A stretch of DNA of 48,901 bases, the filler included, from Catajapyx aquilonaris (lineage: Eukaryota), in the NCBI GenBank assembly GCA_000934665.2. It is 2 parts of 2 records of this genome, joined end to end, with 100 filler letters (N's around TTAATTAATTAA, not from the genome) between each part and the next. Parts side by side here need not be neighbours in the genome. Positions count along the whole stretch, not along the records: positions 24,496 to 48,901 come from JYFJ02005516.1; 1 more part is not named here. One strand, 5' to 3'. How positions within the stretch are numbered: position 1 is the first letter of the stretch; every line of letters starts with the position of its first letter. Shown piece after piece: positions 3,401-48,901 of the stretch. The notes beneath the pieces were generated by a model, which was not told the DNA's origin, did no database searches, and saw only the letters and a list, made by a program, of their open reading frames with translations. The position numbers and the translations under genes were made by a program.

Positions 3401-4800
3401 GGAGGTGAGGTCTGCACAGCAGAGTATGCAGAGCAGGGGCAGGATGCTCTCTGCATTGCTGGAGCAGAAGCAAGAAGGGAATCTTCCAGGAATCTACGGA
3501 CGATTGGTGAGTGAATGAAGCTTCCCGCATGAGGCCCTCTTACATAATACATTTTGGATGTATGCAGCCTCTGTGCCCTTTTTTAAAATGGGCTGCCTTT
3601 CTCTGGAATGCATGACTAGGATGTGGGCCAATAGAGGGGACAAAACATTGTTATAAGGTCATAAACCTGACTTTGTTATGGTCAAGTAGAGCAGATCTGT
3701 GACGACCCTCAGGCTACTACATTTATAAACATATTGGAGAATTTGACCGGATAGCTAACATGTACTGTATAAATATTTGCATGTAATGCCAGTGTATTCA
3801 TTCCTTAGGGTGACTTGGGTGCTATAGAGCCAAAGTATGATGTGGCTGTCTCTACTGCTTGTCCTTCCCTGGACGACATTGTTGTGGACACAGTGAATAC
3901 GGCTCAGAAATGCATTGAGTTTCTGAAGAAGAACAATCTGGGAAAAGCATCATTCGTCCCTCTGGAAAAACAGGAGCACTTGCGGTCACTGTACAAAGCA
4001 CCATTCAGGGCGTGAGTTGAATTATACTTTGTCAATGTGGCACCATCACATACAATTTGTGCCTCCTTTGAATGTGGCATGTGGCATTTAATAAGTGTTG
4101 GATTTTTATTATACTTTCAGCCCTGAGAATGTACCTCGCTTGTTTGACCTGGTGCGAGTGGAAAATGAGACTATCCGACCTGCCTTTTACTTTCGTCTAC
4201 GTGACACATTGGTTGCCGATGACCTGACCCAGGCCATGCGAATAGCATTTGGTCAAGTACGTTACAGGGTGGTCACTCTCAAGGGGGAGTTAATTGAGAC
4301 ATCCGGAACTATGAGTGGTGGTGGAGGCCGGCCACGCAGGGGACTGATGGGCCATTCTGTGGTGTCAAGCCAGGGTGCAGCATCTCCAGGTGAGATTCAC
4401 CGCATGCAGAAGCAAGTAGATGAGCTTATGGGGAAGGTAAGGGCTTTGAGGGATCACGAGGCCATGCTGGAAGAGGAGGTGCCTCAGATGGAGAGGGAGT
4501 CACAGACTCTAAGACACCAAGTACAAATGTTCAGAGTGGAGGCACAGGCAACTGGAGACCAAGAAAAAAGTCTGCGGGAGCAAGTGAAGCAGCAGGAGAA
4601 GAAGGTTAAGGAAACCAAGCCTGACGAAAGGAAGGTCGCCCAGATGGAGGCTGAAGTTAAGAAGACAAAATCTGGTGAGTGTTGAGTTTGAATTTTTAAT
4701 ATGGACATAAATGCAGTAAAACCCCACTGCCATGAATCTCAGGGGTCAGAAATAAGAGGATTTTAGCGCAATGGGTTTGTGGCTCTTTCTTCTCTCTCTC

Positions 4801-4850
<50 letters not shown>

Positions 4851-6908
4851 CTTCATTAAAATGTGTTGATTACCATTTAGGAGATTGTGCAGCTTTTGAA
4901 TAAATATGTAACAGGTGTGTGGAGCGCCTTAAGAGAAAAGAATTGCTTTTTGGAAGTTGCTTCACTAATCATGGACTGTTCCATCAATCACTGTGCCTTT
5001 TTTTTACACAAGACCTTTGGTGCTTCCAGCATATGAGAAGGCATCAGGGAAGACTGAAAAGATCCAGGAAGAAGTCACCCGTTTGACCAACAAGATCCAA
5101 GATATCACTAAGAACCACATGAAGCCAGTGGAGAATACGCTTAAGACTGTCACAAGTAAAGTGGAGAAGGTGACCTAGGACATCACCAGCCTAACAGTAG
5201 CGATCAAGACTTCCAAGAGGAATGCGGCTAAAAGCCAGGAGAAGATCAACAGCCTGGAGGTGGATGTGTCCGAGGCAGCCCTCCAACTCCAGCACATGAG
5301 TGAGAAGAGAAAGGAATTGGATTCTGAAGGACAAGAGTTGTTAGCCAAAATGGAGGTTTATCGCAGTGAAATAGAGGAGTACCAAGCTCGTCTTGCAGAG
5401 CTGAATCAGGGTAAGGAGGAGATTGCTGGCATGGAGAATGAAGCAAAGAAAGAATCCATTGACCTGGAGGCAAAGAAGTCGGAACTGACAAAGAAAGTGA
5501 ATGAGATTAAAACTGGGATCGTTTCCTGGACCAAGAAGTTGAAACTGCTGAAGGTGCACAATTTGGAAACAGGACAGGAGACACCATTGGAAGAGGTGAG
5601 CTCATTTTTTTTGTCTTCTGTGAGAGGGGTCAACTCGCAAGAAAAGGTTGGACGTGCTTCTTGTTTGTTTGCTGTGGCCGTCACAATGAAACCTTACTGG
5701 CAGTGACCTGAAGATTCAGCACCAATGATTATATCTCTCAGTCTTCCCTCCAGTTCAATTGGTCAGCTACATTTCGGGTGGGGTACCAACCACATCAAGT
5801 TGTGCAACTGCATACAGTTTTTTTATGTTGCATTATAACCATTAATACAAGTTCAATGTAGAAGTGCTTACTGTCCATTGCTTCCTGATAGTTGGACCCT
5901 GAAAGGCTAGATGAAGTGGATGAAAACCATATCAACTACCGGCTTACAAACATTGAGGAGGAGCTGAAGAGCATGCATCCAAACCTGGGCGTGATTGCTG
6001 AGTATAGAAAGAAGGAAGAAGATTACCTGAAGTGTGTGTCCGCACTCGAGGAGGTCACAAGGCGAAGGGACAACCAGAGGAAGCAATATGATGATCTGCG
6101 CAAACAGAGGCTCAGCGAGTTCATGTCTGCCTTTGGCATTGTTACTGTAAAGCTAAAAGAGGTGTACCATATGATCACGTTAGGTATGGATTCCAAGGAG
6201 TTACTTTATGGGGTCACTTACACAGTACCAAGGAAGTCAACCAAGTCCACTATTAGGTTGCTTGATGCAGTGCTAAACATAACCACAAACAACGTAACCT
6301 GACAGTACATACATATGACATGTTATATTCTTGTTGGCATGGTAGTAGCTTTGTAGTGGACCAGGTCCAATTTCCTCAGTTCTGTATAAATGACTCCCTG
6401 TTGCATATTTGCTAGGAATCCACAGGAATTTGAATAATATTTCATTGTCTTGCATTAATAAGTTGCTTGTTAATTACTGTTATTAGGAGGTGACGCTGAG
6501 CTGGAGCTGGTCGATTCCATGGATCCCTTCTCCGAAGGGATTGTCTTCAGTGTACGCCCACCAAAGAAGTCATGGAAACACATTGGCCACCTGTCTGGCG
6601 GAGAGAAGACCCTAGCCTCGTTGGCACTTGTGTTTGCACTCCATTACTACAAGCCGAGTCCTCTCTACGTAATGGACGAGATAGACGCCGCCTTAGATTT
6701 CAGGAACGTGCATGTTGTAGCCAACTACGTGAAGGAGCAGACCAAGAACGCTCAGTTCTTAATAATATCTCACCAGTGCAACATGTACGAAAAGGCGGAC
6801 CGATTGGTGGGGATCTACAAGACATACAACTGCAGCAAATCCGTGACCATCAACCCAAAGGAAGTAGAAGCAAACTGTGTGCATCTCCCTGCAAATAAAG
6901 AAAGATAA
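407..6908 (+). CDS. SMC4: Structural maintenance of chromosomes protein 4 (condensin subunit), 13 coding exons
   Basis: Exons read with GT-AG boundaries and consistent phase: 407-688, 762-953, 1019-1195, 1264-1556, 1838-1978, 2047-2197, 2737-2958, 3144-3506, 3809-4011, 4121-4674, 5030-5595, 5892-6183, 6487-6908 (3858 nt, 1285 aa). Motifs: FKSYAG, Walker A GPNGSGKSNVIDAMLFVFG, IDLDHNRFLILQGEVEQI, hinge GIYGRLGDLGAI and SGTMSGGG, RPPKKSWK, signature LSGGEKT, Walker B MDEIDAALD. Confidence 0.97.
4790..4848. repeat. (CT)n microsatellite in SMC4 intron 10
   Basis: Directly visible CT dinucleotide run. Confidence 0.95.
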
Positions 6909-10153: not shown

Positions 10154-13100
10154 TCACCGAAATCCTTCCCATTCAGGAAAATACAATCCAATGATAGAGA
10201 CCATAAAAAAACCAGACAGTCCAACCAAAGCTATGGTCGAGGTTCCAGTGAAATACTGCGAGTACTGGAAATGGCAATACCACGCAAATCCCAATATGAC
10301 ACCTAGTAAGATGAACAGCAGATTCCCAAAGTCCATGTCATTAGAACCTTCACCTGGTGGAGGTAATGCAGGGCGTTCCATTTGTCGAGGCTGATGCACC
10401 ACACAGTGAAGGACGCAGTTGTGGAACAAGCCATAATGCTCCAGGGTTTCTGTGTCACTCTGCAAGACTTGGCCATTGAAGATGAGCCGAACTAACTTGT
10501 TTGTTGCCAGCTCCAAGGAGAAGTGGCGCCTGCAAAATAAAATAGTCATCAAGGTGTAGTGAAGTCAAGGGAAAAACTACGAATGTATCAGCTCAACTTG
10601 CAAGCTAACAGTTTCTATTAGAACTTTGATGTACAAGAATTAACCAGCAGTGGGGGGAGGTGTGGTGGCCGTGATGGTAACGTCTCGGCTTGCTGAGTGA
10701 AAGGCCCCAGGTTCGATGCCCGCCTGGGGAACTTTCCTTCCACCTGCGTCAGGAGGGTCTCTGACCTGCACCAAGGAGGTGTCTGGCAACCTAACCTCCT
10801 GGGGGACAGCACATGACCCCTTTACCGACCTTGCACTTGCACCAATGTTCCCTCCCCAAAAATCCCTACCCCTACCCTACATCCTAGACTCCTTGCACCG
10901 GTGTATGAAGTTAAACGGAGAGAAAATGGTGGTATCCCACCCCCCTAAAAAGGCGAAGCCTTATCACGGGGTAACGTAAAAAAACAACAAAAAAACAATA
11001 ATTAACCATCAGTTATTAAGTAAGATCATCACTATGAAACAGCGATCTTGGTGGTTAGGTATTTCATCACAGGTTATTCCTCTTTCAAGTAGTAACATGG
11101 AATATTTACGCTACTTGATATACAGCGTGTTCTAATAAAAATTGCTTGTATTTGCTTGCAATTTTTAAAAACTAATTAGCTTATTATTAAGCTATTATTA
11201 TGTGCTATAACTACTGAGTGCCTCATTATTTCACTTAGCTTCATTGTGAAGTTACACAACATCCACCGGTGACGTCACGAATGAGGCATCAAATCTGGTT
11301 TAGGCTGCATCAGGTTACATATCGGGTATGCCCAAGGTATGTCCATGGTATGTCCATGGATTGATTGGACCTTGGGTAGAAATGCCGGTACATATCGTCT
11401 CATTATCAACTTTACTATTAATTAGTTCATCACCATCCTTCACGGCTCTTTCCCAAAATCCTGGGGTTGCCAGCGGATAAGGAGGAGGATTACTTGTAAA
11501 TTTGGTAATTATGTGTGCGAGCGGGTCATATGACGTCACTCCTCAGCTGCTGGTTAATAAAAGGGACAGTCGGTGACGTCACGTCCAAAGTCCCCCGTTT
11601 GGTGTGCAATAACCTCTGAACAGTTACTGGTGTGATTGGACATTAGCTGTCAATATTAGCTGCCTGATAATTTCCCCGCGTTTTTCGGAGCAATTTTGAG
11701 TTAATAAATGTTATTGCCACTAATTGGAAGGGAAACGAGTTTCATATTTTATGATGACGCACTAAAATTAATAAAACCAGCACAGATGACCTTTACGGCC
11801 TCTACCCTATTTATACCTCGTTGCAGGATCCAGACACTTTGCAGTCCTCTTGCGTCCTATTGGTCCAGTCACACCAGACCAACCATTACGACCAAACATT
11901 ACGACCAACCAGGCGCAGTGTAAAACCTAGGATTGGAATTAACACGATCCAGTACCTGCAAGCTGATTGATCAGATTTGTTGAATGGCTGGCACTGGCAG
12001 TCATTGGCGGACTGTGCGCATGTGCAGTGATGGGGGAAACGGTAATGTAGGCGGAAAAGTTAGGCGGGAAGGTGTGAGGCTCCTGATTGGCGGAGCCGTA
12101 CATACCGGTGGGAGCAGGAAGCAACGTGACGCAATAATTGTGATTGCTTACGCAATCCTCAACGGAAATTGCCGCATACGAGGGGGGAGGTGAGTAGCGA
12201 GCAAGTAGCGAGAGAGGTGCAGGGGGAGGGGTGGTGAGTGGGTTGGCGGGGCTGTGAGGGGGGAGAGGTGAAGGGAGGTGTGAGCCTCCTGATTGGGCGA
12301 GGGTGTGAGGGGGGATATGACGTAGTGGCAGATTAGAGGACGTGGAGTGGAAGTGTTGGGGGCAGTGGGGGAGGCAAGAGGGTGGGGGAGGCTACCGTTG
12401 GGGAGTTGGCGGATACATAAATTTCGCGATCTCGAAAACGGCTGGGAATTTTGCGATTATGAGGATTTTTGGTATCGGTATATCGGAGGCTAGAAATCCA
12501 ACGGCGTAAGTCCGACGTCTCTGCGACGCCGGGAAGTGCGAAATCTTTTTCATCCTCCTCCTCGTCGGAATCGGGCTTTATATACAGGGTGTATCTGAAC
12601 TCAGTGCCCCGACGTATATGACTGCCTTCCTAGCCACCAGAGGATCGATTTAAGTATAGGAATCATTATGTTTGGCCGCCGCATTACGGAGATAATTGGC
12701 CGCAAGCATGTAGTACAAAATATCCTGTCGGTTAGGCCACCCACCGAACCCTCCCCCAGTCAGAAGGCTCTGGAAGGTCTGGGGGCGGGACTTCGTTGGT
12801 TTGTTGCCCACAGGTGGGAAGGCCTCTTTGGCTAGTTGCACCAGAAAATTCTATTTAAAAGTCAGAAGGAGCGATTAGGCAAAAATCGCTAAAGAGTGTA
12901 TCTCCGTAATGCGGCGGCCAAACATAATGATTCCTATACTTAAATCGATCCTCTGGTGGCTAGGAAGGCAGTCATATACGTCGGGGCACTGAGTTCAAAT
13001 ACACCCTGTATATTAGATAGACGAGAATACATGGTAATTGGTTAACATGGCAACAATGCTTGATTTTTGTTGATTGTGACTAAATTACCACCCCTTCTTT

Positions 13101-39783: not shown

Positions 39784-41212
39784 AATTGACCAATTTCCAG
39801 ATGCGCACCTCTAGCGGCCAATTTCGGCCTGCCATCGTTATGAGAGCAGAGGCAGGACTTTCCTATCCCTGCCCACGTTAAATGGCCTCTGCTTGTTCAC
39901 GTCTGGGGGTCTGGCCCCGGGGCAGATCTTGTTGACATTTTTTTGTGGAGTGGGGAGGTTCCTGGCCTGCCCTCACCAGGTTCCAAAAGTTAATTGGCCC
40001 CCAGGCGGACTGCCCCCGGAGTGATTTCGTGAACATGCGAGTTTCTCAATACTATCCGGCCTTTCATTGTCTGCGTCTTATGTTTGGCCCCGGGGCAGAT
40101 CTTGCTGGTAAATTTTTTTGGATGGACCAGACACTGAACCTTCCCTTACCCGGTGGCTGAAACTGCCCCTGGAGTTATTTTGTGAGCGCTGACCGCGCTG
40201 TTCTCATTATTATCCGCCCTTTGTCCGCGTTTGGTAGTTTAGCCCCGCGTAGATCTTGCTGAGAATTTTTTAAATGGTTCCACTAATTTCATAAATTACA
40301 GTGTCACATTTTAGACTCCCAGCATAACAGAACTGCTGCAAGAATATGCACACATGCCGTATAGATACGTATCGCAAACATTTAGATTTTAGAAGGAATG
40401 ACAAGACTTTTAAAAAAATTAATGAGCAAGCTACAAACTTACACACACATGGTCAAAAGTAAGGTCCATAATCAAATGGGTTCGTGCTCAACAGATCTGC
40501 CCCGGGGCCAAACCACCAAACGCAGACAATAAGAGGGCAGATTTTTTATTATTTTTTTTTTATTATTATTATTTTACGTTACCCCGTGCTAGGGCCATGG
40601 GCCCTTTTAGGGGGGTGGGATACCACCATTTGCTTTAATTTTCGATTTTTTTCTTCTTCACTCTGGTGCAAGGATGAAAGAACATGGGGAAGGGATAGGG
40701 AATTTTTGGGGAGGGAACATGGGTGCAAGAGGGCAGATATAATAACGAGAAAAGCGCGGCCACCACTCACAAAAATAACTCCGAGGGCAGTTCACCTCAG
40801 TGCCGAGTCACTTCTGGCTCCTGGTAAGGGAAGGTTCGGTCCCTGGTCACTCAAAAAATATATATATACCAGCAAGATCTGCCCCGGGGCCAAACTATAA
40901 GACGCGGACAATGAGTGGCAGAATAGTAATGAGAAAAGAGCAATCACAATTCACAAAATAACTCCGGGGGCAGTCCACCCGGGGGCCAATTAACTTTTGG
41001 AACCTGGTGAGGGCAGGCCAGGAACCTCCTCACTCCAGAAAAAAACATGTCAACAAGATCTGCCCCGGGGCCAGACCACCAGACGCGAGCAAGCAGAGGC
41101 CATTTAACATGGGCAGGGATAGGAAAGTCCCGCCTCTGCTATCATAACGCCGCCATTTTGATGGCAGGCCAAAATTGGCCGCGAGAGGTGCGCATCTGGA
41201 AATTGGTCAATT
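39784..41212. mobile_element. About 1.4-kb foldback element with long, internally repetitive TIRs
   Basis: Arms are reverse complements over several hundred bp; each arm has three copies of GGCCCCGGGGCAGATCT(T)G. Confidence 0.85.
40543..40726 (-). mobile_element. 5'-truncated SINE family A copy inserted into the right arm of the foldback element
   Basis: Tail TTACGTTACCCCGTG and body similar to the family A 3' half; 12-bp TSD AAGAGGGCAGAT. Confidence 0.8.
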
Positions 41213-41217
41213 GGTCA

Positions 41218-41382
41218 ATTTGGCGGTGCTACATCGTTCGCTATACGGCCATCTTGTCAAGGTGCAATCAACTGGTAGGTAGCGAGCGAGTCTGCCGATT
41301 GGCTACCACAGACTTACCACTTGAGTGCACCTTGACAAGATGGCGGTATATCAACCAATGTAGCGCCGCCAGCGCCAAATTT
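41218..41382. repeat. Imperfect inverted repeat or small MITE
   Basis: GCCATCTTGTCAAGGTGCA is inverted as TGCACCTTGACAAGATGGC, with longer imperfect arms. Confidence 0.7.
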
Positions 41383-42740
41383 CAGCCTGGCCCAGACACA
41401 GGAATAACCCACCGTAGCCATATGGCTACGGGGGGGAAGTGACAGGGGACTGAGCCAATCCGTCAAGACAACCTTTCAATACACTCCTTCCCTCCTGAAA
41501 TTACTAATTTCGTATTATGGTGTACCTGGATATGTGCAGCTGTCCTTCCTCAACAGTCGCTACCATGTTGACCCGCTGAAGTCAAGTGTCCTCGTTCCAA
41601 GACGATCTCCGGCGAACGGGAAGCATTTGGGCAAAGTAGACTAAAATGTGGCGATCCAACTTGCATGTACTGCACACAGCCAGACGATTTTTCCCACGTC
41701 CTCCACGGCAAACCTGCATAACAGGCAGCCAGCCCTGGCCTGGTGCTGGTTGGTACATAAGCAAGGCAGGTTCTGGACCGGGCGACCACCATATGACTCA
41801 TTTCGCGTCCAAGCTAAAAGAAAGAATTCACAATGCTGTAAATACACTTCATGTCCCGCAACTTTTCCCAGCAACTCCATGCGACTCATGCGTGTAGCAA
41901 GAGATTAATTTTCCCAACAGTGGTCTACAACAAATGCTTTCATGCCAAAGCCATGCCTGTATGGTGAAAGTGAGCCTGGAACCTGCCCCTGGGCAAGCCC
42001 TGGGCCCTCACCCTATCCTACACGAACCCAATCCTTGAGCCTGCCGACTAGGCTAGCTTCCCCCCCAAGTATTTCCCCGCCCAACCACCCTGTCGACCCT
42101 TCCCCCGTGTGCATCACACTTCTGCCTTACCGTCCCGTAGCCTGCGGGGCCGACTCAGGGGCCAATGTGGGGGGCAGCTGAACACCAGGGGCGGCACACG
42201 AAGGAGAAGCCGTCTAGAATCGAACAACGGAAGAGATGGAGAGCAGCGCCACGGAGACAAAGCGAGACGCCGGGGAACCCAAGTGGAGAAGAGTGGAAAT
42301 GCATAGTTCCCATTCCTCTCACTAGGTGCCAGGGAGAGTCTCCTTTTTTTGATCAAAGCCCGGTACTGTATTTCACAATTGGGAACTACTGTCCTCAAAC
42401 ACTTTCCTATGAAATTTTCCTAAGAAATTTTCCATGCCTTGCAATCCATACAATCTTGAATCAACGTTCAAGAATCAACGTGTTACAGTGAACATGTGCC
42501 TGTAAGTCCAGGTAGCAATCAAAATTTAATTACTGTACTGACATCTTCATAAAATTAACCTACAAGCACGGCTAGGCAGGGTTGTGAATCCGATAACATC
42601 GGAGCCACTCCGGAGCAGTAGAGCTGAGCCCGGAGCGAGCGTTGGAGCTTGCTTTGGGTTCGAGCCGGTTCGGGGGGAGAGTGGAGCTAAGGTCGGAGCG
42701 GTTCAGAGCTTTGTTAGGTCCAACATACCAACGCAATGGA

Positions 42741-43028
42741 TGGGGGGAAAGGCAGAAAAACCGCTGGAATTCCTCCAGCGTATGCGTCATGTTTTCATGG
42801 TTGGAGAATGACATTTCTAAGCACCCGCGATACAAGGTGTGCCGCATTGTGACATACAAAAAATGGGTATGACATATTGTAACATGAAAATGCGTATGAC
42901 GTAAAAATGTGACATTTGCGGTAGGCTACACCCTGTATCGCGGGTGCTTGGAAATGTCATTCTCCCACCATGAAAACATGACGCATACGCTGGAGTAAAT
43001 CCAGTGGTTTTTCTGCCTTCCCCCCCAC
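42741..43028. mobile_element. MITE-like inverted repeat (about 110-bp arms)
   Basis: CTCCAGCGTATGCGTCATGTTTTCATGGT..AGCACCCGCGATACA is inverted at about 42930-43028. Confidence 0.75.
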
Positions 43029-43199
43029 CCCTTTGGAGATAAAAAAGTGTTCTCTCAAAATAAGGTTGAAGACCACTGCATAAAGTCAAAAATCTCTCAC
43101 TTGTTTTGTTGCACGAATCCATATGTGCAATTTCCTCATGGTGGTACCCAGAATACAACACAATAAGAGCATTCCAGAGAGCAGAGATATAAATCAAAA

Positions 43200-43346
43200 A
43201 ATTGTTCCTCTGTTTACGGCACACTCTCCTCCTTGCTGATAACGGAATTGAGTGCTTCCTAACAGAGGTACTTAATCTTCCCCTCGGTTTATTGATATGG
43301 CACTAACAACCTTACGGAATGAGGCTGAAAGCGTGGCTGAGGGGTG
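43200..43346 (-). ncRNA. Box H/ACA snoRNA, SNORA65(U65)/snR34-like, copy 1
   Basis: Hairpin CCCCTC..GAGGGG, H box AGATTA, hairpin CCTCTG..CAGAGG with pocket TTAGGAA/GCCG, ACA 15 nt below the upper stem; lies just downstream of a GTGAGA donor. Confidence 0.8.
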
Positions 43347-44121
43347 AATTTGTGCAACTAATTCCTTATTTTTCCCCAAAATTGTGCAACACAGTGACCA
43401 AAAATGCAGCAAAACAATAAACAAACCACATCTCACCTGACAAACCATTCTTGAGTGAAGCATCCAAATGGCAGAACCTCAAGGACTTTCATAGGGCCCG
43501 TAGGATACAGCTGCATGAACTGGATGAAGTTGAACTATCTGCAACACAAGACATTCATTACAACTTGCTCCAAAATACCAATTTCAAGACACTCTAATTG
43601 CATCATCCATCATACAAGAAAATATGGACTGAGGTCGTGTAATTAGCGTGTATACTGAGACACGTAGAAATTCTAGGGCAAAAATATTCATGGCCGATTT
43701 GACGGGAAATTGATGAAGATCACAGACACACTCTTCAAGGAGCATTCCCATCTTGCAGAACCCCAGCGTTACTATTTACTAGGGACGGCCGTGACATGGC
43801 ACTAACGGATTTGGACAAAAATCACTCCGTGAGTAAATCACAAGTGTAGAATTCAGTGGTGAGCATAAACAGATGCATTATGCAGCCATTTTCGAGACAG
43901 ATCCCGCGTGCTAAAACTTCTTTGCGTCTTTTTGACACTTCGTGAGAAGTAAATCAATTAGGGAGTTTTCCGAAGTGTCAAAAAGGCACAAATAGGAATC
44001 ATTTTATTTCTCGCAAAGTAGCCCTACAACGATTTCAGAAAATTCGTCCGGCACGCTTCTCAAAAATGTTGTTCTGTCTATTTTAGCATAGTTCATAATT
44101 AAATCAGCCTACAGCCTTCTT

Positions 44122-44349
44122 CACATATTCGGCGGAAGGCTGCGCGGGCGGCAAGAGTGCGTGTGGGGGGTGTGGTTTGGGGCGCGGAACCTGAGCGGTG
44201 GCAATCGCAAAGTCCATCCAGTTGGACTTTGCGGATTCCCACCGCCGCACCACCGCCAAATTTGTGAATTGCCACCGCTCAAGTTCTGCTCACCAAGCCA
44301 CGCCCCAAACGCATTCTTGCTGCCCGCTCAGCCTTCCGCCGAATTTGTG
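44122..44349. repeat. GC-rich imperfect inverted repeat (MITE-like)
   Basis: TTCGGCGGAAGGCTG..GAGCGGTGGCAAT is inverted as ATTGCCACCGCTC..CAGCCTTCCGCCGAA. Confidence 0.7.
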
Positions 44350-44637
44350 TAGCACGCTTAACAGTTGGCTGGTAGTACTCGAATTTCAAGTTTTTAAGGC
44401 TGTCATTTTGGAAATTAATTTAGCCATTTGTAGAGTAGTAAAATTGTTCACAACCCATTAATAGTGATTTCCATTAATGGGTAAATATAGCTGTTATTAT
44501 TTGAACAATATCTGGTCTTCATATTCAAAGTAGGCATAAGTGGGAAACTAGATGTTTTTGGTCTAGCTGGTAGCGAAGGGGTTAAGAGTGATGGCACAAA
44601 TGAGCGAAGCATGTTCAAAATTATGTAACGAAGCTAT

Positions 44638-44785
44638 GTTCGTTCCACTGTTTACGGCACACTCGCATCCTTAGTTGTATTGAAATAGAGTGCTTCCTAA
44701 CAGAGGAATTTTATATCCCCCTTCAGTGTAATTATGAGACACTGAAAACCTTAAGGAAAGAGGTCATCAGCATGGTAAAGGGGTC
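44638..44785 (-). ncRNA. Box H/ACA snoRNA, SNORA65-like, copy 2 (subtype B; canonical ACA position reads ACG)
   Basis: H box ATATAA, 3' hairpin pocket TTAGGAA/GCCGTAAA intact, 5' pocket diverged. Confidence 0.65.
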
Positions 44786-45081
44786 ATTTCAAACTTTTGC
44801 ATGTAGATTTTTCTTAAAATTCGTCAAGTTATTTCAAATAATCTCACCAGACAAACCAGTCGTAAGTGACACATCCAGCTAGTTGCAACCGAATGCCCAT
44901 GTGCAGGAACCAACCAAATCTGAGGAGTTGAAAAAGTTGTGTTTCTTGTGTTGCCTGAAACAAAACAAAACGTTACTTCAAATCATCCATAACAAAAAAA
45001 TGTGTTAAATAGAGCAAGTGGCTGCTACTCATTCTGGTATGAAATGCAAACCAGAATGCATATCAATTGTGGCAAAGCAAT

Positions 45082-45228
45082 ATTTGTTCCACTGTTTACG
45101 GCACACCCGCATCCTTGGATATATCGGAATCGAGTGCTTCCTAACAGAGGTGTTTAATATTCCCCTCGGTTGTATCATGTGGCACTGACAACCTCATGGA
45201 ATGAGGCCGAAAGCGTGGCTGAGGGGTG
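45082..45228 (-). ncRNA. Box H/ACA snoRNA, SNORA65-like, copy 3
   Basis: Both hairpins, H box ATATTA, ACA box; inside intron 45311-44955 (GTGAGA..TTTCAG). Confidence 0.8.
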
Positions 45229-45590
45229 GCTTCAAGCAGTGACACATGCAGGGCTTTTCCCTGAAAACTTGTCTGTGCCTGTTACTTTGGTAGACAGAAA
45301 AAATATCTCACCCAACAATCTACTGCTAAGTCACACATTCAACCAGCGGCAATTTCCCATTATCCATCTGGGAGCATCCGCATAAATCTGAAGGGTTGGG
45401 AAAGATACATCTCTTGCACCACCTGTAACAGAAAAATCATTTATTAAAATTATTGCAAGGCAACAAAAATTCCTTCCCATCTGGGAGAAACATCTGGTGA
45501 TAACATCTTCGCAATTGAAGCACCGATAAGGCACAAATTTTATTCCACTGGCCATATCATTACTAAACATTCCATGCTTTCTCACCTAAT

Positions 45591-45953
45591 CGAAGTGTCA
45601 AAAAGCGGCAAATAAGTATTAATTTATTTCTCGCAAAGTATGACTATTTCAGCAAATTCGTCTCGCACGCTTCTCAAGGTTGTTGCTCCGTATATTTTAC
45701 CTATTTCACATTAAATGAGCCTTCCAGTTGGCCGGTAGTACTTCAATTTCTAGTTGTTAAGGCAGTCTTTTTGGAAATGAATTTTGGGACTTCAAGAGGA
45801 GTAAAATTGTTAGCTGTCATTATTTCACACAATATCTTGACTTTATCTTCAGAGTAGGCGTAAGTGGAAACCTAGGCGTTTTTGGCCTAGTTAGTAGCGA
45901 AGGGGTTAAAATGAGCACAAGTGAGTAAAGGTTGTTCAAAATTATGTAACGAA
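45591..45953 (+). repeat. Duplicate of 43971-44633, including a piggyBac-like end GTAGCGAAGGGG-TTAA
   Basis: Shared GAAGTGTCAAAAAG..TTTATTTCTCGCAAAGTA..GTAGCGAAGGGGTTAA..GTTCAAAATTATGTAACGAA. Confidence 0.8.
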
Positions 45954-46066
45954 TGTAGTTTCAAGCTCTTTTGACTTTAACGGCATTTGAAAATGGCAAA
46001 ATTTATCATTTCGGCCGCTACATGCAAGACCATTCAAGTCCCAGTTACCAAAGTTTTATCCTACAT

Positions 46067-46342
46067 AATTCATACCCCGTTATCAGCCTTTTTCGGCTCT
46101 TTAGGGGGGACGTTTGTTTTGCCTGGAACTCTGCTTTCATTTTACTGTGCTCTTTGGAATAGGATAGGGGCGAAAGGAAGCGGCTGTGGCCTATTAATTA
46201 TGGAAGCAACTCCAGAATTTTCCTGGAAGGACCGTGGGAAACCACAGAAAATCACGGTCAGAGTTTCCGGCCCCGGGATTTGATCCCTGGACCTCCCGAT
46301 TAGCAGTCGGACACCATATCCCCTCCTCCAAACTGCTTCGGT
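46067..46342 (-). mobile_element. tRNA-derived SINE, family C
   Basis: B-box-like GGATCAAATCCC on the minus strand, tail GGCTGATAACGGGGTA, perfect 15-bp TSD AGTTTTATCCTACAT. Confidence 0.8.
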
Positions 46343-47191
46343 AGTTTTATCCTACATGTATCATGTACATATTCTGATAGGCCATGATCTCTACTTTCAG
46401 GAAGTGAAAATCAGAACATCCTATCTTGAACAGACACCAAACAGTAGCCTTTTTTCAGAACCCTTCCAAATGCTCCTTTTCACTCACCGTGGTGAAGAAA
46501 AATGAGTATAAATCCAAGATGGTGGCAGATAAAAAATTAACAAAAATAGTTTCGAGCAAATCAATATCAAGGCTACCTACGGTGAAAATGTAAAAAATTA
46601 ACTAGATGGGCGAGCAACCACCCTGGCCCATTCACATGGAATGACTCAACGGCAATGAAACTGCAATTTTTTTTAGATGTGACGTACTGTATACCAGGCA
46701 AAACAGACTATTCCGCAAAATTGCTATTGTATGGACTGATTTTGCACCATAGTGAGATAAAGTAATTATATTTGCTTCCCCATTTGTCTCTCTTTCTCAT
46801 CAGCAAAATCTATCAGTAACATCCTTGACCTGAATATAGTGGAAACCTACCTATTATGGAAAAATTTTGGGGTCCCATGCAATTCCACAATACACAGGTT
46901 TCACTGTATTTTCCTTAAATTTGGAGAAGTTATCTAAAATTTAAATTGTAAAAAAAAAATCAGCGGGCAAGCCAGTGTCAAGTGACACATCCAACTAGCT
47001 GCTTTTGAATGCCCATGACATGTACAGAAAACAACTGTGAAAATGGCACGTCTCTTGTATTGCCTGAAACACAGCAAACATTACTTTAAATCATTCCATG
47101 ACAACAAAATTAGTTAAATTGAGAGTGATTGCTACTCATTCTGGCATAAAATGTTAGCCAGAATACTATTTCAATTACATGGCATAGCAAT

Positions 47192-47307
47192 GTTTGTTCC
47201 CCTGTTTACGGCACACCCGTATCCTTGATCAGAGGAATTTTATATCCCCCTCAGTTTAATTATGAGGCACTGACAACCATCAGGCTATCAGCTTGACAAA
47301 AGGGGTC
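47192..47307 (-). pseudogene. SNORA65-like snoRNA copy 4 (subtype B), internally deleted
   Basis: H box ATATAA and ACA are kept, but the TTAGGAAGCACTC arm of the 3' hairpin is missing. Confidence 0.65.
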
Positions 47308-47780
47308 AAGTCATGCAGTAACTTTTACATGTATATTTTCCTTAAAATTTAAGAAGTTATTTCAAATGATAAAGAAACATATCTCACCAGAGAAACCAGT
47401 CGTAGGTGACGCATCCAACCAGCTGCGATTGAATGCCCATGACTTGTGCAGGAAGCAACGGAATCTCAAGAGTTGAAAAGGAGGGAGTGATAGATAGGTA
47501 AAGTGAGACTTAATTTTTTACAGAGCGGATCAGCAAAATTGCACACACACACACACTCTCTGCAATTTCTGGAGTCCTTTTGTAGTGTGTAATGTGTTTG
47601 GGTTGAATTATCTTCAGTGGATTAACCAAGCCCAACGCACTGCTGGTGTTGCCTGAAACAAAACAAAATGTTACTTCAAATCGTCCATGTCAAAAAAAAT
47701 TGTTAAACCTAGCAAGTGACTGCTACTCATTCTGGCATGAAATGCAAACCAGAATCCCATATCAATTATGGCAAAGCAAT

Positions 47781-47927
47781 ATTTGTTCCCCTGTTTACGG
47801 CACACCCGCATCCTTGGATATATTGGAATCGAGTGCTTCCTAACAGAGGCGTTTAATCTTCCCCTCGGTTGTATGATCTGGCACTGACAACCTCATGGAA
47901 TGAGGCCAAAAGCGTGGCTGAGGGGTG
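47781..47927 (-). ncRNA. Box H/ACA snoRNA, SNORA65-like, copy 5
   Basis: Guides GCCAC/GCCAG (5' pocket) and TTAGGAA/GCCG (3' pocket), H box AGATTA, ACA; inside intron 48007-47653. Confidence 0.82.
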
Positions 47928-48349
47928 GCTTCAAGCAGTGACATTATTTTACGCAGGGCTTTTCCCTTAAAATTTGTTACTTAAGATAAACAGAAAAAAT
48001 ATCTCACCCAACAATTGACTGCTCAGTCACACATCCAACAAGCGACAATTGCCCATTATCCATCAGGCAGCATCCACATAAATCTGAAGGGTTGGGAAGG
48101 ATACATCTCTTGCACCACCTGTAACACAAAAATCATTTATTAAAATTAATCCAAGACGACAAAAATTCCTTCCCATCTGGGAGAAACATCTGGTCATAAC
48201 ATCTTCGCAATTGAAGCACCAATAAGGCAACAATTTTATTCCATTGGCCTAAACTAAATTTCATGTGTTCCCACCTAACCATAACAAGCTGAAATGTGAT
48301 GCTTGGTTCACCTTTGAAATTACAAGCATCTCCTTATCAGGAATGTGAA

Positions 48350-48540
48350 TGGCAGACAAGATGCTGTGTCCCGGAACTGCTTCACCCGCCTTATGATTGT
48401 CAGGTGGTCTGGGACTTTGTTCTCACGTCTAAGCCCAACATTGCGCCAAAAGATCCCTTGCACAGCTATGGTGGACTCATTACTTTAAAAATAAATCCCA
48501 ATGGCGAATGCACCGTGCTCTGCCGACCCCGACACCATTT
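48350..48540 (-). pseudogene. Tc1/mariner transposase N-terminal HTH (DUF4817-like) remnant
   Basis: AEHGAFAIGIYF*SNESTIAVQGIFWRNVGLRRENKVPDHLTIIRRVKQFRDTASC fits the EHRAFAVE.YF..ES....Q..F......VP...TI.RWV..FR.TGS pattern. Confidence 0.75.
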
Positions 48541-48663
48541 TTGGAAATGGCAAACCTTCCCCACTCCAGCACATGCCCATATACCCTGCATGCTCATACA
48601 GCACCACCGTACCACGTGATTCCAATCCTACCATACATTTTCTCCAACCCTGTACAAGGACCA

Positions 48664-48763
48664 ACAACATCGCAATTATACATATTATCCACAAAAAGGT
48701 AAGTACCTTTTCCCTTTTCCCTTTTTACCTTTTTGTGGATAATATGTATAATTGCGATGTTGT
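48664..48763. mobile_element. 100-bp hairpin mini-element
   Basis: Perfect 39-bp inverted arms, flanked by GACCA on both sides. Confidence 0.75.
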
Positions 48764-48901
48764 GACCAGCTGCCCGTCTGAACAGTCGCAAGTTCTGGGT
48801 GTTCCTGCTCCATCATGGCCAATACACCGTCGCCTGCGTTCAGCTGCTTACTAGTTCTTTACATTGTATGATTGTACGTTTTGTGTATATGTGTTCATAT
48901 C

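Follow-up and report, generated by a model that had tools for sequence, protein, structure and literature searches.

Probable intronic H/ACA guide RNAs of the SNORA65/snR34 type in a tandem array of Catajapyx aquilonaris

The closest described systems to the locus considered here are vertebrate SNORA65 (U65) and yeast snR34. The latter is given as the U65 homologue, with both of its hairpins active in vitro (available parts of PMC5778458). In yeast, snR34 directs the formation of Psi2826, and Psi2880 is lost in an snR34/52/67 deletion strain; both positions lie in the peptidyl-transferase-centre (PTC) region, and Psi2826 (Psi2457 in E. coli) is described as universally conserved (accessible sections of PMC11121408). 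The chicken U65 orthologue is assigned 28S-3858 through its 5′ pocket and 28S-3912 through its 3′ pocket, 54 nt apart (accessible text of PMC2653536), and a SNORA65 site is given as 28S-4417 in the numbering of PMC7862062 itself. In general, according to the available parts of PMC6049503 and PMC7991803, H/ACA guides form at least 8 bp with their target, no fewer than 3 of them on either side, and the pocket lies about 15 nt from the box. The same portions of these two sources describe this distance as a ruler, given as about 15 nt and, for eukaryotes, as 15–16 nt.

Here, we describe a module of about 146 nt that occurs five times on the minus strand of a 48.9-kb window, the whole stretch of DNA analysed, from the arthropod-like genome of Catajapyx aquilonaris. 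From the sequence, we consider it probable, at roughly 80%, that the array consists of intronic H/ACA guides of the SNORA65/snR34 type for two uridines in the PTC region of the large-subunit (LSU) rRNA, carried by a tandemly duplicated and probably non-coding host. The gene type is an ordinary one, of a known kind, which is missed here by standard RNA-family annotation.

Five copies of one module

The copies are found where a sequence-only reading of this DNA had placed them, all on the minus strand: c1 at 43200..43345, c2 at 44638..44784, c3 at 45082..45227, c4 at 47192..47305 and c5 at 47781..47926. Exact matching also bore out the two blocks that had been called invariant in five and in four of the copies, respectively. 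The first, CTGTTTACGGCACAC, has five exact matches (43210, 44648, 45092, 47202 and 47791) against about 0.11 expected, and none of 100 shuffles gave five. The second, GAGTGCTTCCTAACAGAGG, has four (43250, 44688, 45132 and 47831) against 0.01 expected; it is missing from the copy at 47192 because of a 25-nt deletion seen in the alignments. Trained on these copies, a covariance model recovers its own five in the window at 95–179 bits, and no sixth copy was found with it in the 48.9 kb, the next-best match scoring 15.9 bits (E 0.052). Identity between pairs of copies ranges from 73 to 95% over the module, c3 and c5 being 95% identical to each other and c1 84% identical to both. Stops in all six frames, which had been attributed to every copy, are present in four, whereas c2 has one frame that is open over 151 nt.

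Each copy had been proposed to fold as hairpin, ANANNA box H, hairpin and ACA. This architecture is present, with exceptions in the two B-type copies, c2 and c4. Box H occurs on the minus strand in all five (AGAUUA, AUAUUA or AUAUAA), and ACA stands 15 nt past the 3′ pocket in four, the same place being occupied by ACG in c2. The MFE folds of c1, c2 and c3 show hairpin, hinge, hairpin and tail. That of c5 has the expected 3′ hairpin; the 5′ half is instead branched, in an alternative fold within the same lower stem. Fold z-scores lie between −2.5 and −4.6 (c1 −4.6, c3 −2.9, c5 −3.2). No two-hairpin form appears in the MFE fold of c4. In the alignments, the deletion in this copy covers half of the upper stem as well as the 5′ strand of the 3′ pocket. 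With the H/ACA structure imposed, 94.2% of cells are paired across the copies.

Compensatory changes in the stems, which the sequence-only reading had named as a test, did not appear: among five close paralogues, a comparison of low power, none of the 34 stem pairs is altered on both sides, and there is no excess over a shuffle control. Nine pairs vary on one side only and are still paired, 22 are invariant, and three are off-pairing only through unpaired cells. Since the five copies are paralogues, their agreement counts as non-independent evidence. Among c1, c3 and c5 (84–95% identical), variation differs from element to element, with invariant letters at 20/20 guide, 8/9 box and 24/25 lower-stem positions, against 1/4 in the hinge, 6/11 in the 3′ loop and 7/12 in the spacer.

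Only the three A-type copies, c1, c3 and c5, look functional from their sequence, with no visible damage; in c5, for instance, box H lies at 47854-47859 and ACA at 47784-47786. The B-type copies look like decaying ones, c4 through its internal deletion and c2, probably impaired, through its ACG box and a drifted 5′ guide (ACCAU / GUCUC). The proposal of five H/ACA snoRNAs therefore stands for three copies and is weakened for these two. That the c2 box had been cut by a transposon junction was considered and rejected: past the box, c2 and c4 carry homologous letters (AACGAACAU vs AACAAACAU), and the repeat at 43971-44632 recurs at 45591-45962 in a duplicated unit; ACG is thus a point change. 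An origin of the module from a tRNA-derived element was likewise rejected, since a tRNA scan of 40000-48901 found none.

Guide pockets and predicted rRNA targets

Pairing was examined against rRNA of metagenome eukaryotes, which stand in for this species, over the 3′ ~2 kb of the LSU. The two target motifs co-occur in at least 105 metagenome stretches, and all three of the loci tested are eukaryotic LSU rRNA. The motifs are separated by 38 nt in 80 of the 80 matches listed, which places the two target uridines 54 nt apart. The family had previously been credited with targets at yeast 2826 and 2880 and at human 4373 and 4427. The yeast pair is confirmed in the accessible text of PMC11121408 and its 54-nt spacing matches, whereas the human positions appear in no relevant paper found. 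When two LSU 3′ halves of ~2 kb each were scanned for matches having 3 bp or more on both sides, the predicted sites came out best for both pockets.

In c1, c3, c5 and c2, the 3′ pocket (UAGGAA / GCCG) can form 6+4 bp on the two sides of the U of CGGC-UC-UUCCUA, as found with two eukaryotic LSU sequences. In the same four copies, the upper stem is separated from the box by 15 nt (alignment columns 129-143), the box being ACG in c2. The pocket thus agrees with all three of the rules on total pairing, pairing per side and distance to the box, and the pairing and 15-nt spacing first proposed for it are upheld. From this complementarity, the 3′ pocket would make the equivalent of yeast Psi2880.

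The 5′ pocket is less straightforward. It had been read as pairing around AACUGGC-UU-GUGGC, and in c1, c3 and c5 its strands (GCCAC / GCCA or GCCAG) do pair 4–5+5 bp around the U of CUGGC-UU-GUGGC, with 5+5 bp in c5 and 4+5 bp in c1 and c3. That reading does not extend to c2 and c4, which are without the complementarity, c2 forming just 3+4 bp at the family site. In addition, the pocket lies 22–23 nt from box H (alignment columns 47-70), against a reported norm of about 15–16 nt. This distance makes a role of the 5′ pocket in forming the Psi2826 equivalent doubtful.

One explanation for these observations is that the RNAs are real and that the 3′ pocket alone is active, at the Psi2880 equivalent, with the 5′ hairpin serving RNP assembly and stability and its complementarity to the Psi2826 site being an ancestral remnant that has ceased to position the uridine. 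This is a serious possibility, though we lean against it. The spacing beyond the ruler of about 15 or 15–16 nt (PMC6049503 and PMC7991803, in their available parts) speaks for it, as do the pairing in c1 and c3, which comes close to the 8-bp minimum, and the B-type copies, which lost the 5′ complementarity and kept the 3′ guide letter for letter. On the other hand, c1, c3 and c5 all carry GCCAC and GCCA unchanged and vary in the letters right after them, the matched site is exactly the second snR34/U65 site, 54 nt from the first, and this upstream site is the top match in both rRNA scans. It seems rather unlikely that the 5′ pocket works at 22–23 nt, its 3′ strand looping out the ~8 letters in excess. 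If it did, the ~15-nt H/ACA ruler would be a minimum span and not a fixed distance in this lineage, and the locus would give natural test variants, since the guide is present in its A-type copies and absent from the B-type ones. The odd spacing is a small testable question on the H/ACA distance rule.

An Rfam search of the window at the gathering cut-off gave no hits; the cut-off for SNORA65 (RF00302) is 70 bits, and all copy scores are less than half of it. Below that level, cmscan gives SNORA65 scores of 33.7 bits for c5 (E 0.0023), 28.1 bits for c3 (E 0.043) and 23.2 bits for c2 (E 0.57), and c1, searched alone, scores 25.8 bits (E 0.0067); these E-values are valid only for the small stretches searched. 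The alignments of these four copies span the full model (1-127), with the 5′ hairpin aligning poorly, and c4 has no Rfam match. SNORA65 is the top-scoring snoRNA family for four of the five copies and the sole snoRNA family matched on the copies in the scan of part of the window. The likeness to SNORA65 in cmscan that the sequence-only reading had anticipated is therefore seen as a best family match, full-length in four copies, at 23–34 bits against 70 and with no standard hit.

Intronic setting and host gene

The idea that the copies are intronic is borne out by conserved splice signals. A splice donor, GGTGAGAT, is conserved 60–90 nt before each of the five copies, and a TTTCAG acceptor lies 128–129 nt after c5, c4 and c3; the introns carrying these three measure 324–357 nt. 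Along the minus strand, the proposed exon A1 (48008..48118; acceptor ttacag|, donor |gtgagat) lies upstream of the c5 intron, and exon B1 (47388..47652), with stops in all three frames, between the c5 and c4 introns. Exon A2 (45312..45422), a paralogue of A1 also with stops in all three frames, precedes the c3 intron, B2 (44848..44954) separates the c3 and c2 introns, and exon C (43437..43538) lies upstream of the c1 intron. An extra B-type exon, Bx (46966..47063), has kept its acceptor and lost its donor, and no snoRNA is detected after it. The exon-intron-snoRNA units have been duplicated whole, including a recent two-unit duplication of 2.7 kb.

In the introns of c3, c4 and c5, a conserved hairpin lies past the snoRNA and ahead of the 3′ splice site. 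It was considered as a second small RNA downstream of these snoRNAs and rejected as such, no C/D or H/ACA boxes being seen in it and no Rfam match being found.

The host gene is probably non-coding and tandemly duplicated on the minus strand, judging from its exons. Over the last 16 kb of the window (from 32.7 kb on), 120 open frames reach 55 aa or more, and none of them has a Pfam match. A protein-coding host was rejected, as the 20 ORFs of at least 120 aa in the window yielded nothing beyond an SMC gene and an ORF of the ubiquitin family, each over 30 kb away. RPL12, the vertebrate host, was not seen among the window ORFs.

It is improbable, in our view, that the whole array is a dead relic, that is, an untranscribed duplicated snoRNA host locus, and that the working SNORA65-type gene lies in another part of the genome. 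Two of the five copies are visibly damaged, Bx stands without donor and snoRNA, and repeats and palindromic insertions crowd the locus throughout, as such a relic would have it. Against this, boxes, guides and stems are all kept in three copies, five donors and three acceptors are kept, and the module is conserved better than its intron flanks: c1 and c5 have 126 of 148 letters in common inside the module, and only 50/80 and 52/100 in the flanks. We regard it as very improbable that the module belongs to a transposon or to a satellite-like repeat and resembles an H/ACA RNA by chance. It is locally repeated in TE-rich DNA, without a gathering-level Rfam match or compensatory change, but both pockets fit the two known targets of its best-scoring snoRNA family, its units are duplicated with exons and splice sites and not as free-standing inserts, and the other 43 kb of the window hold no additional copy.

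Under the preferred reading, of intronic guides in a duplicated host, the host gene on the minus strand would be spliced with the copies carried in its introns, and each intron would be trimmed after splicing to an RNA of about 146 nt. This RNA would be bound by dyskerin/Nop10/Nhp2/Gar1 and, once bound, would guide pseudouridylation of LSU rRNA in the PTC region. We infer that RNAs are made from the copies. The target uridines sit in the PTC region, and finding a likely guide for them in this arthropod-like genome closes a gap in the annotation left by the standard Rfam search, which had no hits at the cut-off. The locus also illustrates how snoRNA genes multiply and decay, with copies being duplicated and some of them then losing a box, a guide or half a hairpin.

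Comparison with known systems

Like the module described here, vertebrate SNORA65/U65 (RF00302) is a two-hairpin H/ACA guide, and its model consensus shares with the copies the 3′ pocket letters UUAGGAA...UGUGCCG..AA and the GGAACA tail. Chicken U65 has the same arrangement, with the 5′ pocket directed to the upstream site and the 3′ pocket to the site 54 nt downstream, and its host is RPL12 intron 4 (available parts of PMC2653536), in contrast to the repeated non-coding exon-intron units of this locus. The module also differs from SNORA65 in its longer, poorly aligned 5′ hairpin (~66 nt), in a 5′ pocket 22–23 nt from box H and in its scores of 23–34 bits against a cut-off of 70. In yeast, Psi2826 and Psi2880 of the 25S rRNA are 54 nt apart, as are the target uridines of the two motifs matched here, so that snR34 is likened to the module by its targets and not by its sequence; to our knowledge, snR34 itself is not intronic.

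For the genomic setting, the nearest parallel is in Drosophila, which is said to have intronic clusters of H/ACA snoRNAs and non-coding Uhg hosts, to go by the titles alone of Huang et al. 2004/2005 and Tycowski & Steitz 2001. The layout at the present locus is the same, with one snoRNA per short intron and repeated exons that contain stops. Taken by its sequence, the array is likely a distant counterpart of SNORA65/snR34, arranged as an intronic cluster in the Drosophila style.

Architecture of the five module copies

The five copies of a module of ~146 nt on the minus strand of the window, c1 (43200-43345), c2 (44638-44784), c3 (45082-45227), c4 (47192-47305) and c5 (47781-47926), are, judging from sequence, most likely H/ACA guide genes that cluster in introns and serve the snR34/U65 sites. 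The sequence-only reading had described them as five intronic SNORA65/snR34-like snoRNAs; its observation is real and its interpretation largely right, except that the cluster is not SNORA65 by that family's cut-off and that, of the five copies, three look to be working and two decayed. The blocks on which it relied are found where it placed them: CTGTTTACGGCACAC has 5 exact occurrences in the window (0.11 expected), a count reached in none of 100 shuffles, and GAGTGCTTCCTAACAGAGG has 4 (0.01 expected). Stops in all six frames, also claimed, are present in four of the five copies, but one frame is open in c2. In the minus-strand alignment, the modules are 73-95% identical and sort into two types, A (c1, c3, c5) and B (c2, c4). 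When the window was searched with a covariance model made from the five, they scored 95-179 bits and no sixth copy emerged, the runner-up reaching only 15.9 bits.

On the minus strand, the minimum-energy fold of c1, c2 and c3 consists of two hairpins with a hinge between them; c5 has the same 3′ hairpin, and its 5′ half adopts an alternative branched fold within the same lower stem. Fold z-scores range from -2.5 to -4.6. The hinge reads AGAUUA, AUAUUA or AUAUAA, every variant of which fits the ANANNA of box H. The proposed order of hairpin, H box, hairpin and ACA in each copy is thus borne out for the hinge motif (5/5) and mostly for the tail (ACA in 4/5), but c2 ends in ACG and c4, from which 25 nt are missing (the 3′ pocket's 5′ strand, plus half the upper stem), has no two-hairpin fold.

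When one 34-pair structure was imposed on the five-copy alignment, 94.2% of cells were paired versus 36-56% with the partners slid, a contrast that is expected because the structure was derived from the same sequences. Pairing is kept despite a one-sided change in 9 of the 34 pairs. Compensatory changes between copies, whose lack had been listed among the grounds for refutation, are absent: no pair of the 34 is altered on both sides, nor is there any excess over the shuffle control, and consequently covariation lends no support. Nevertheless, this says little, as five close paralogues could hardly supply any. Conservation is selective by element: among c1, c3 and c5, the invariant letters amount to 20/20 in the guide, 8/9 in the boxes and 24/25 in the lower stem, and those of the hinge, apical loop and spacer vary. 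Between c1 and c5, 126 of 148 letters are shared in the module, and 50/80 and 52/100 in the flanks.

Predicted guide pockets and likely family

Metagenome contigs were searched, with a variable gap, for the two rRNA motifs suggested earlier, and at least 105 stretches contained both. Among the matches listed, the gap was 38 nt in 80 of 80 stretches, and therefore the two candidate uridines are 54 nt apart; all three loci tested were eukaryotic LSU rRNA (1516-2031 bits). Every U of two ~2-kb LSU 3′ halves, taken from metagenome eukaryotes rather than from C. aquilonaris, was then scanned against each pocket. Of the matches that have 3 bp or more on each side, the predicted sites are the best for both pockets; alternatives with higher scores have only 1 bp on one arm. 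Excerpts of PMC6049503 and PMC7991803 give the guide rules as a minimum of 8 bp in total and of 3 bp on each side, with a target-to-box distance of about 15 nt, or 15-16 nt in eukaryotes. The 3′ pocket agrees with all of these, pairing by 4+6 bp at CGGC-UC-UUCCUA, 15 nt from ACA, as had been proposed. The 5′ pocket was likewise expected to pair at CUGGC-UU-GUGGC, which is the case in c1 and c3 (4+5 bp) and c5 (5+5 bp), but not in the B-type copies (just 3+4 bp in c2, nothing in c4). Its predicted pairing satisfies the rules; however, it sits 22-23 nt from box H (alignment columns 47-70), which leaves its activity at the candidate site doubtful. No alternative ANANNA was found at the proper distance from this pocket.

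In a standard search, no Rfam family matched anywhere in the window. In a second search, restricted to 42800-48300 with E-value reporting (E-values valid only for such small searches), SNORA65 (RF00302) matched c5 (33.7 bits, E 0.0023), c3 (28.1 bits, E 0.043) and c2 (23.2 bits, E 0.57) over the whole model, and c1, searched alone, gave 25.8 bits (E 0.0067). SNORA65 is the sole snoRNA family matched on the modules in 42800-48300. Otherwise that search matched miRNA-type models to palindromic repeats and, weakly, a C/D model to one repeat. The score stems mainly from the 3′ hairpin, in which UUAGGAA, UGUGCCG and GGAACA are identical to the consensus; alignment of the 5′ hairpin is poor. The likeness to SNORA65 thus extends to four copies, but every score lies far under the cut-off of 70 bits. 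By that cut-off the cluster falls outside the family, and it is likely a distant counterpart.

Predicted introns, probable host gene and surroundings

The copies are intronic by their splice signals, as claimed: a GGTGAGAT donor is conserved 60-90 nt upstream of all five (~1 such site is expected by chance in the window), and c5, c4 and c3 are followed 128-129 nt downstream by a (T)GTTTCAG/GCAA acceptor, giving predicted introns of 324-357 nt with one snoRNA apiece. The putative intervening exons (98-265 nt) are paralogous to one another. In two of the proposed exons, B1 and A2, stops close each of the three frames, including, in A2, the one that is open in its twin A1. Over the final 16 kb, 120 open frames reach 55 aa or more, and none matched Pfam; the only recognisable genes in the window, both >30 kb from the array, are an SMC gene (SMC_hinge and SMC_N ORFs at 4095-6908, plus strand, and 10154-10552, minus strand; E 1.8e-32) and, on a separate ORF, a ubiquitin-family match. 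For these reasons, the host gene, as spliced in the prediction, looks non-coding.

A 2.7-kb segment that includes one A and one B unit is present twice through duplication (c5+c4 and c3+c2; spacing 2696-2699, identity 89-96%). A further putative B-type exon, at 46966-47063, has kept its acceptor and lost its donor and snoRNA. Repeats and palindromes are inserted between units. A repeat of ~400-660 nt (43971-44632 and 45591-45962) occurs once in the intron following c2 and once upstream of exon A2; homology between its first ~30 nt and the intron tail behind c4 suggests that it belongs to an older duplicated unit and is not a fresh insertion. One of its copies contains a long GC-rich palindrome (44119-44351), most likely a MITE-like foldback and not a miRNA, which the plant model MIR1858 matches below threshold (79.3 bits, cut-off 137). 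Another palindromic MITE-like element, with weak MIR807 and MIR4416 matches, lies directly downstream of c1 (42800-42970). An insert of ~290 bp at 46052-46364, with direct repeats of 22 nt on either side (46052-46073 and 46343-46364, 86% identical), may be a SINE with its target-site duplication; ARAGORN called no tRNA in it despite tRNA-like letters. On the upstream side of the array, as read on the minus strand, 48664-48763 holds a perfect inverted repeat of 39 nt whose arms are 22 nt apart.

An 8-bp hairpin is conserved on the minus strand in the introns of c5 (47729-47755), c4 (47138-47164) and c3 (45031-45057), ~25 nt past the ACA tail. One pair of its stem is U-G, C-G and U-A across the three copies, and RNAalifold proposes a long-range stem that would enclose everything as far as the polypyrimidine tract. 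No such hairpin follows c1 or c2, and Rfam gave no match for it.

Comparison with known guide RNAs

The layout of the array is that which a passage of PMC5932544 describes for fly snoRNAs, clustered in different introns of one host gene that is sometimes untranslated. Yeast snR34 is called a homologue of human U65 in part of PMC5778458, where both hairpins modify substrates in vitro. According to sections of PMC11121408, snR34 guides the formation of Psi2826, which corresponds to E. coli Psi2457; a strain without snR34, snR52 and snR67 loses both this pseudouridine and Psi2880, each of which lies in the peptidyl-transferase-centre region. A literature search found no confirmation of the human site numbers proposed earlier (4373/4427). 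In the chicken U65 orthologue, hosted by RPL12 intron 4, an excerpt of PMC2653536 assigns 28S-3858 to the 5′ pocket and 28S-3912 to the 3′ pocket. On the numbering in these excerpts, a distance of 54 nt separates the paired sites in yeast and in chicken alike, just as it separates the candidate uridines of the rRNA motifs that the C. aquilonaris copies match, and these copies have their predicted pockets in the same order as chicken U65.
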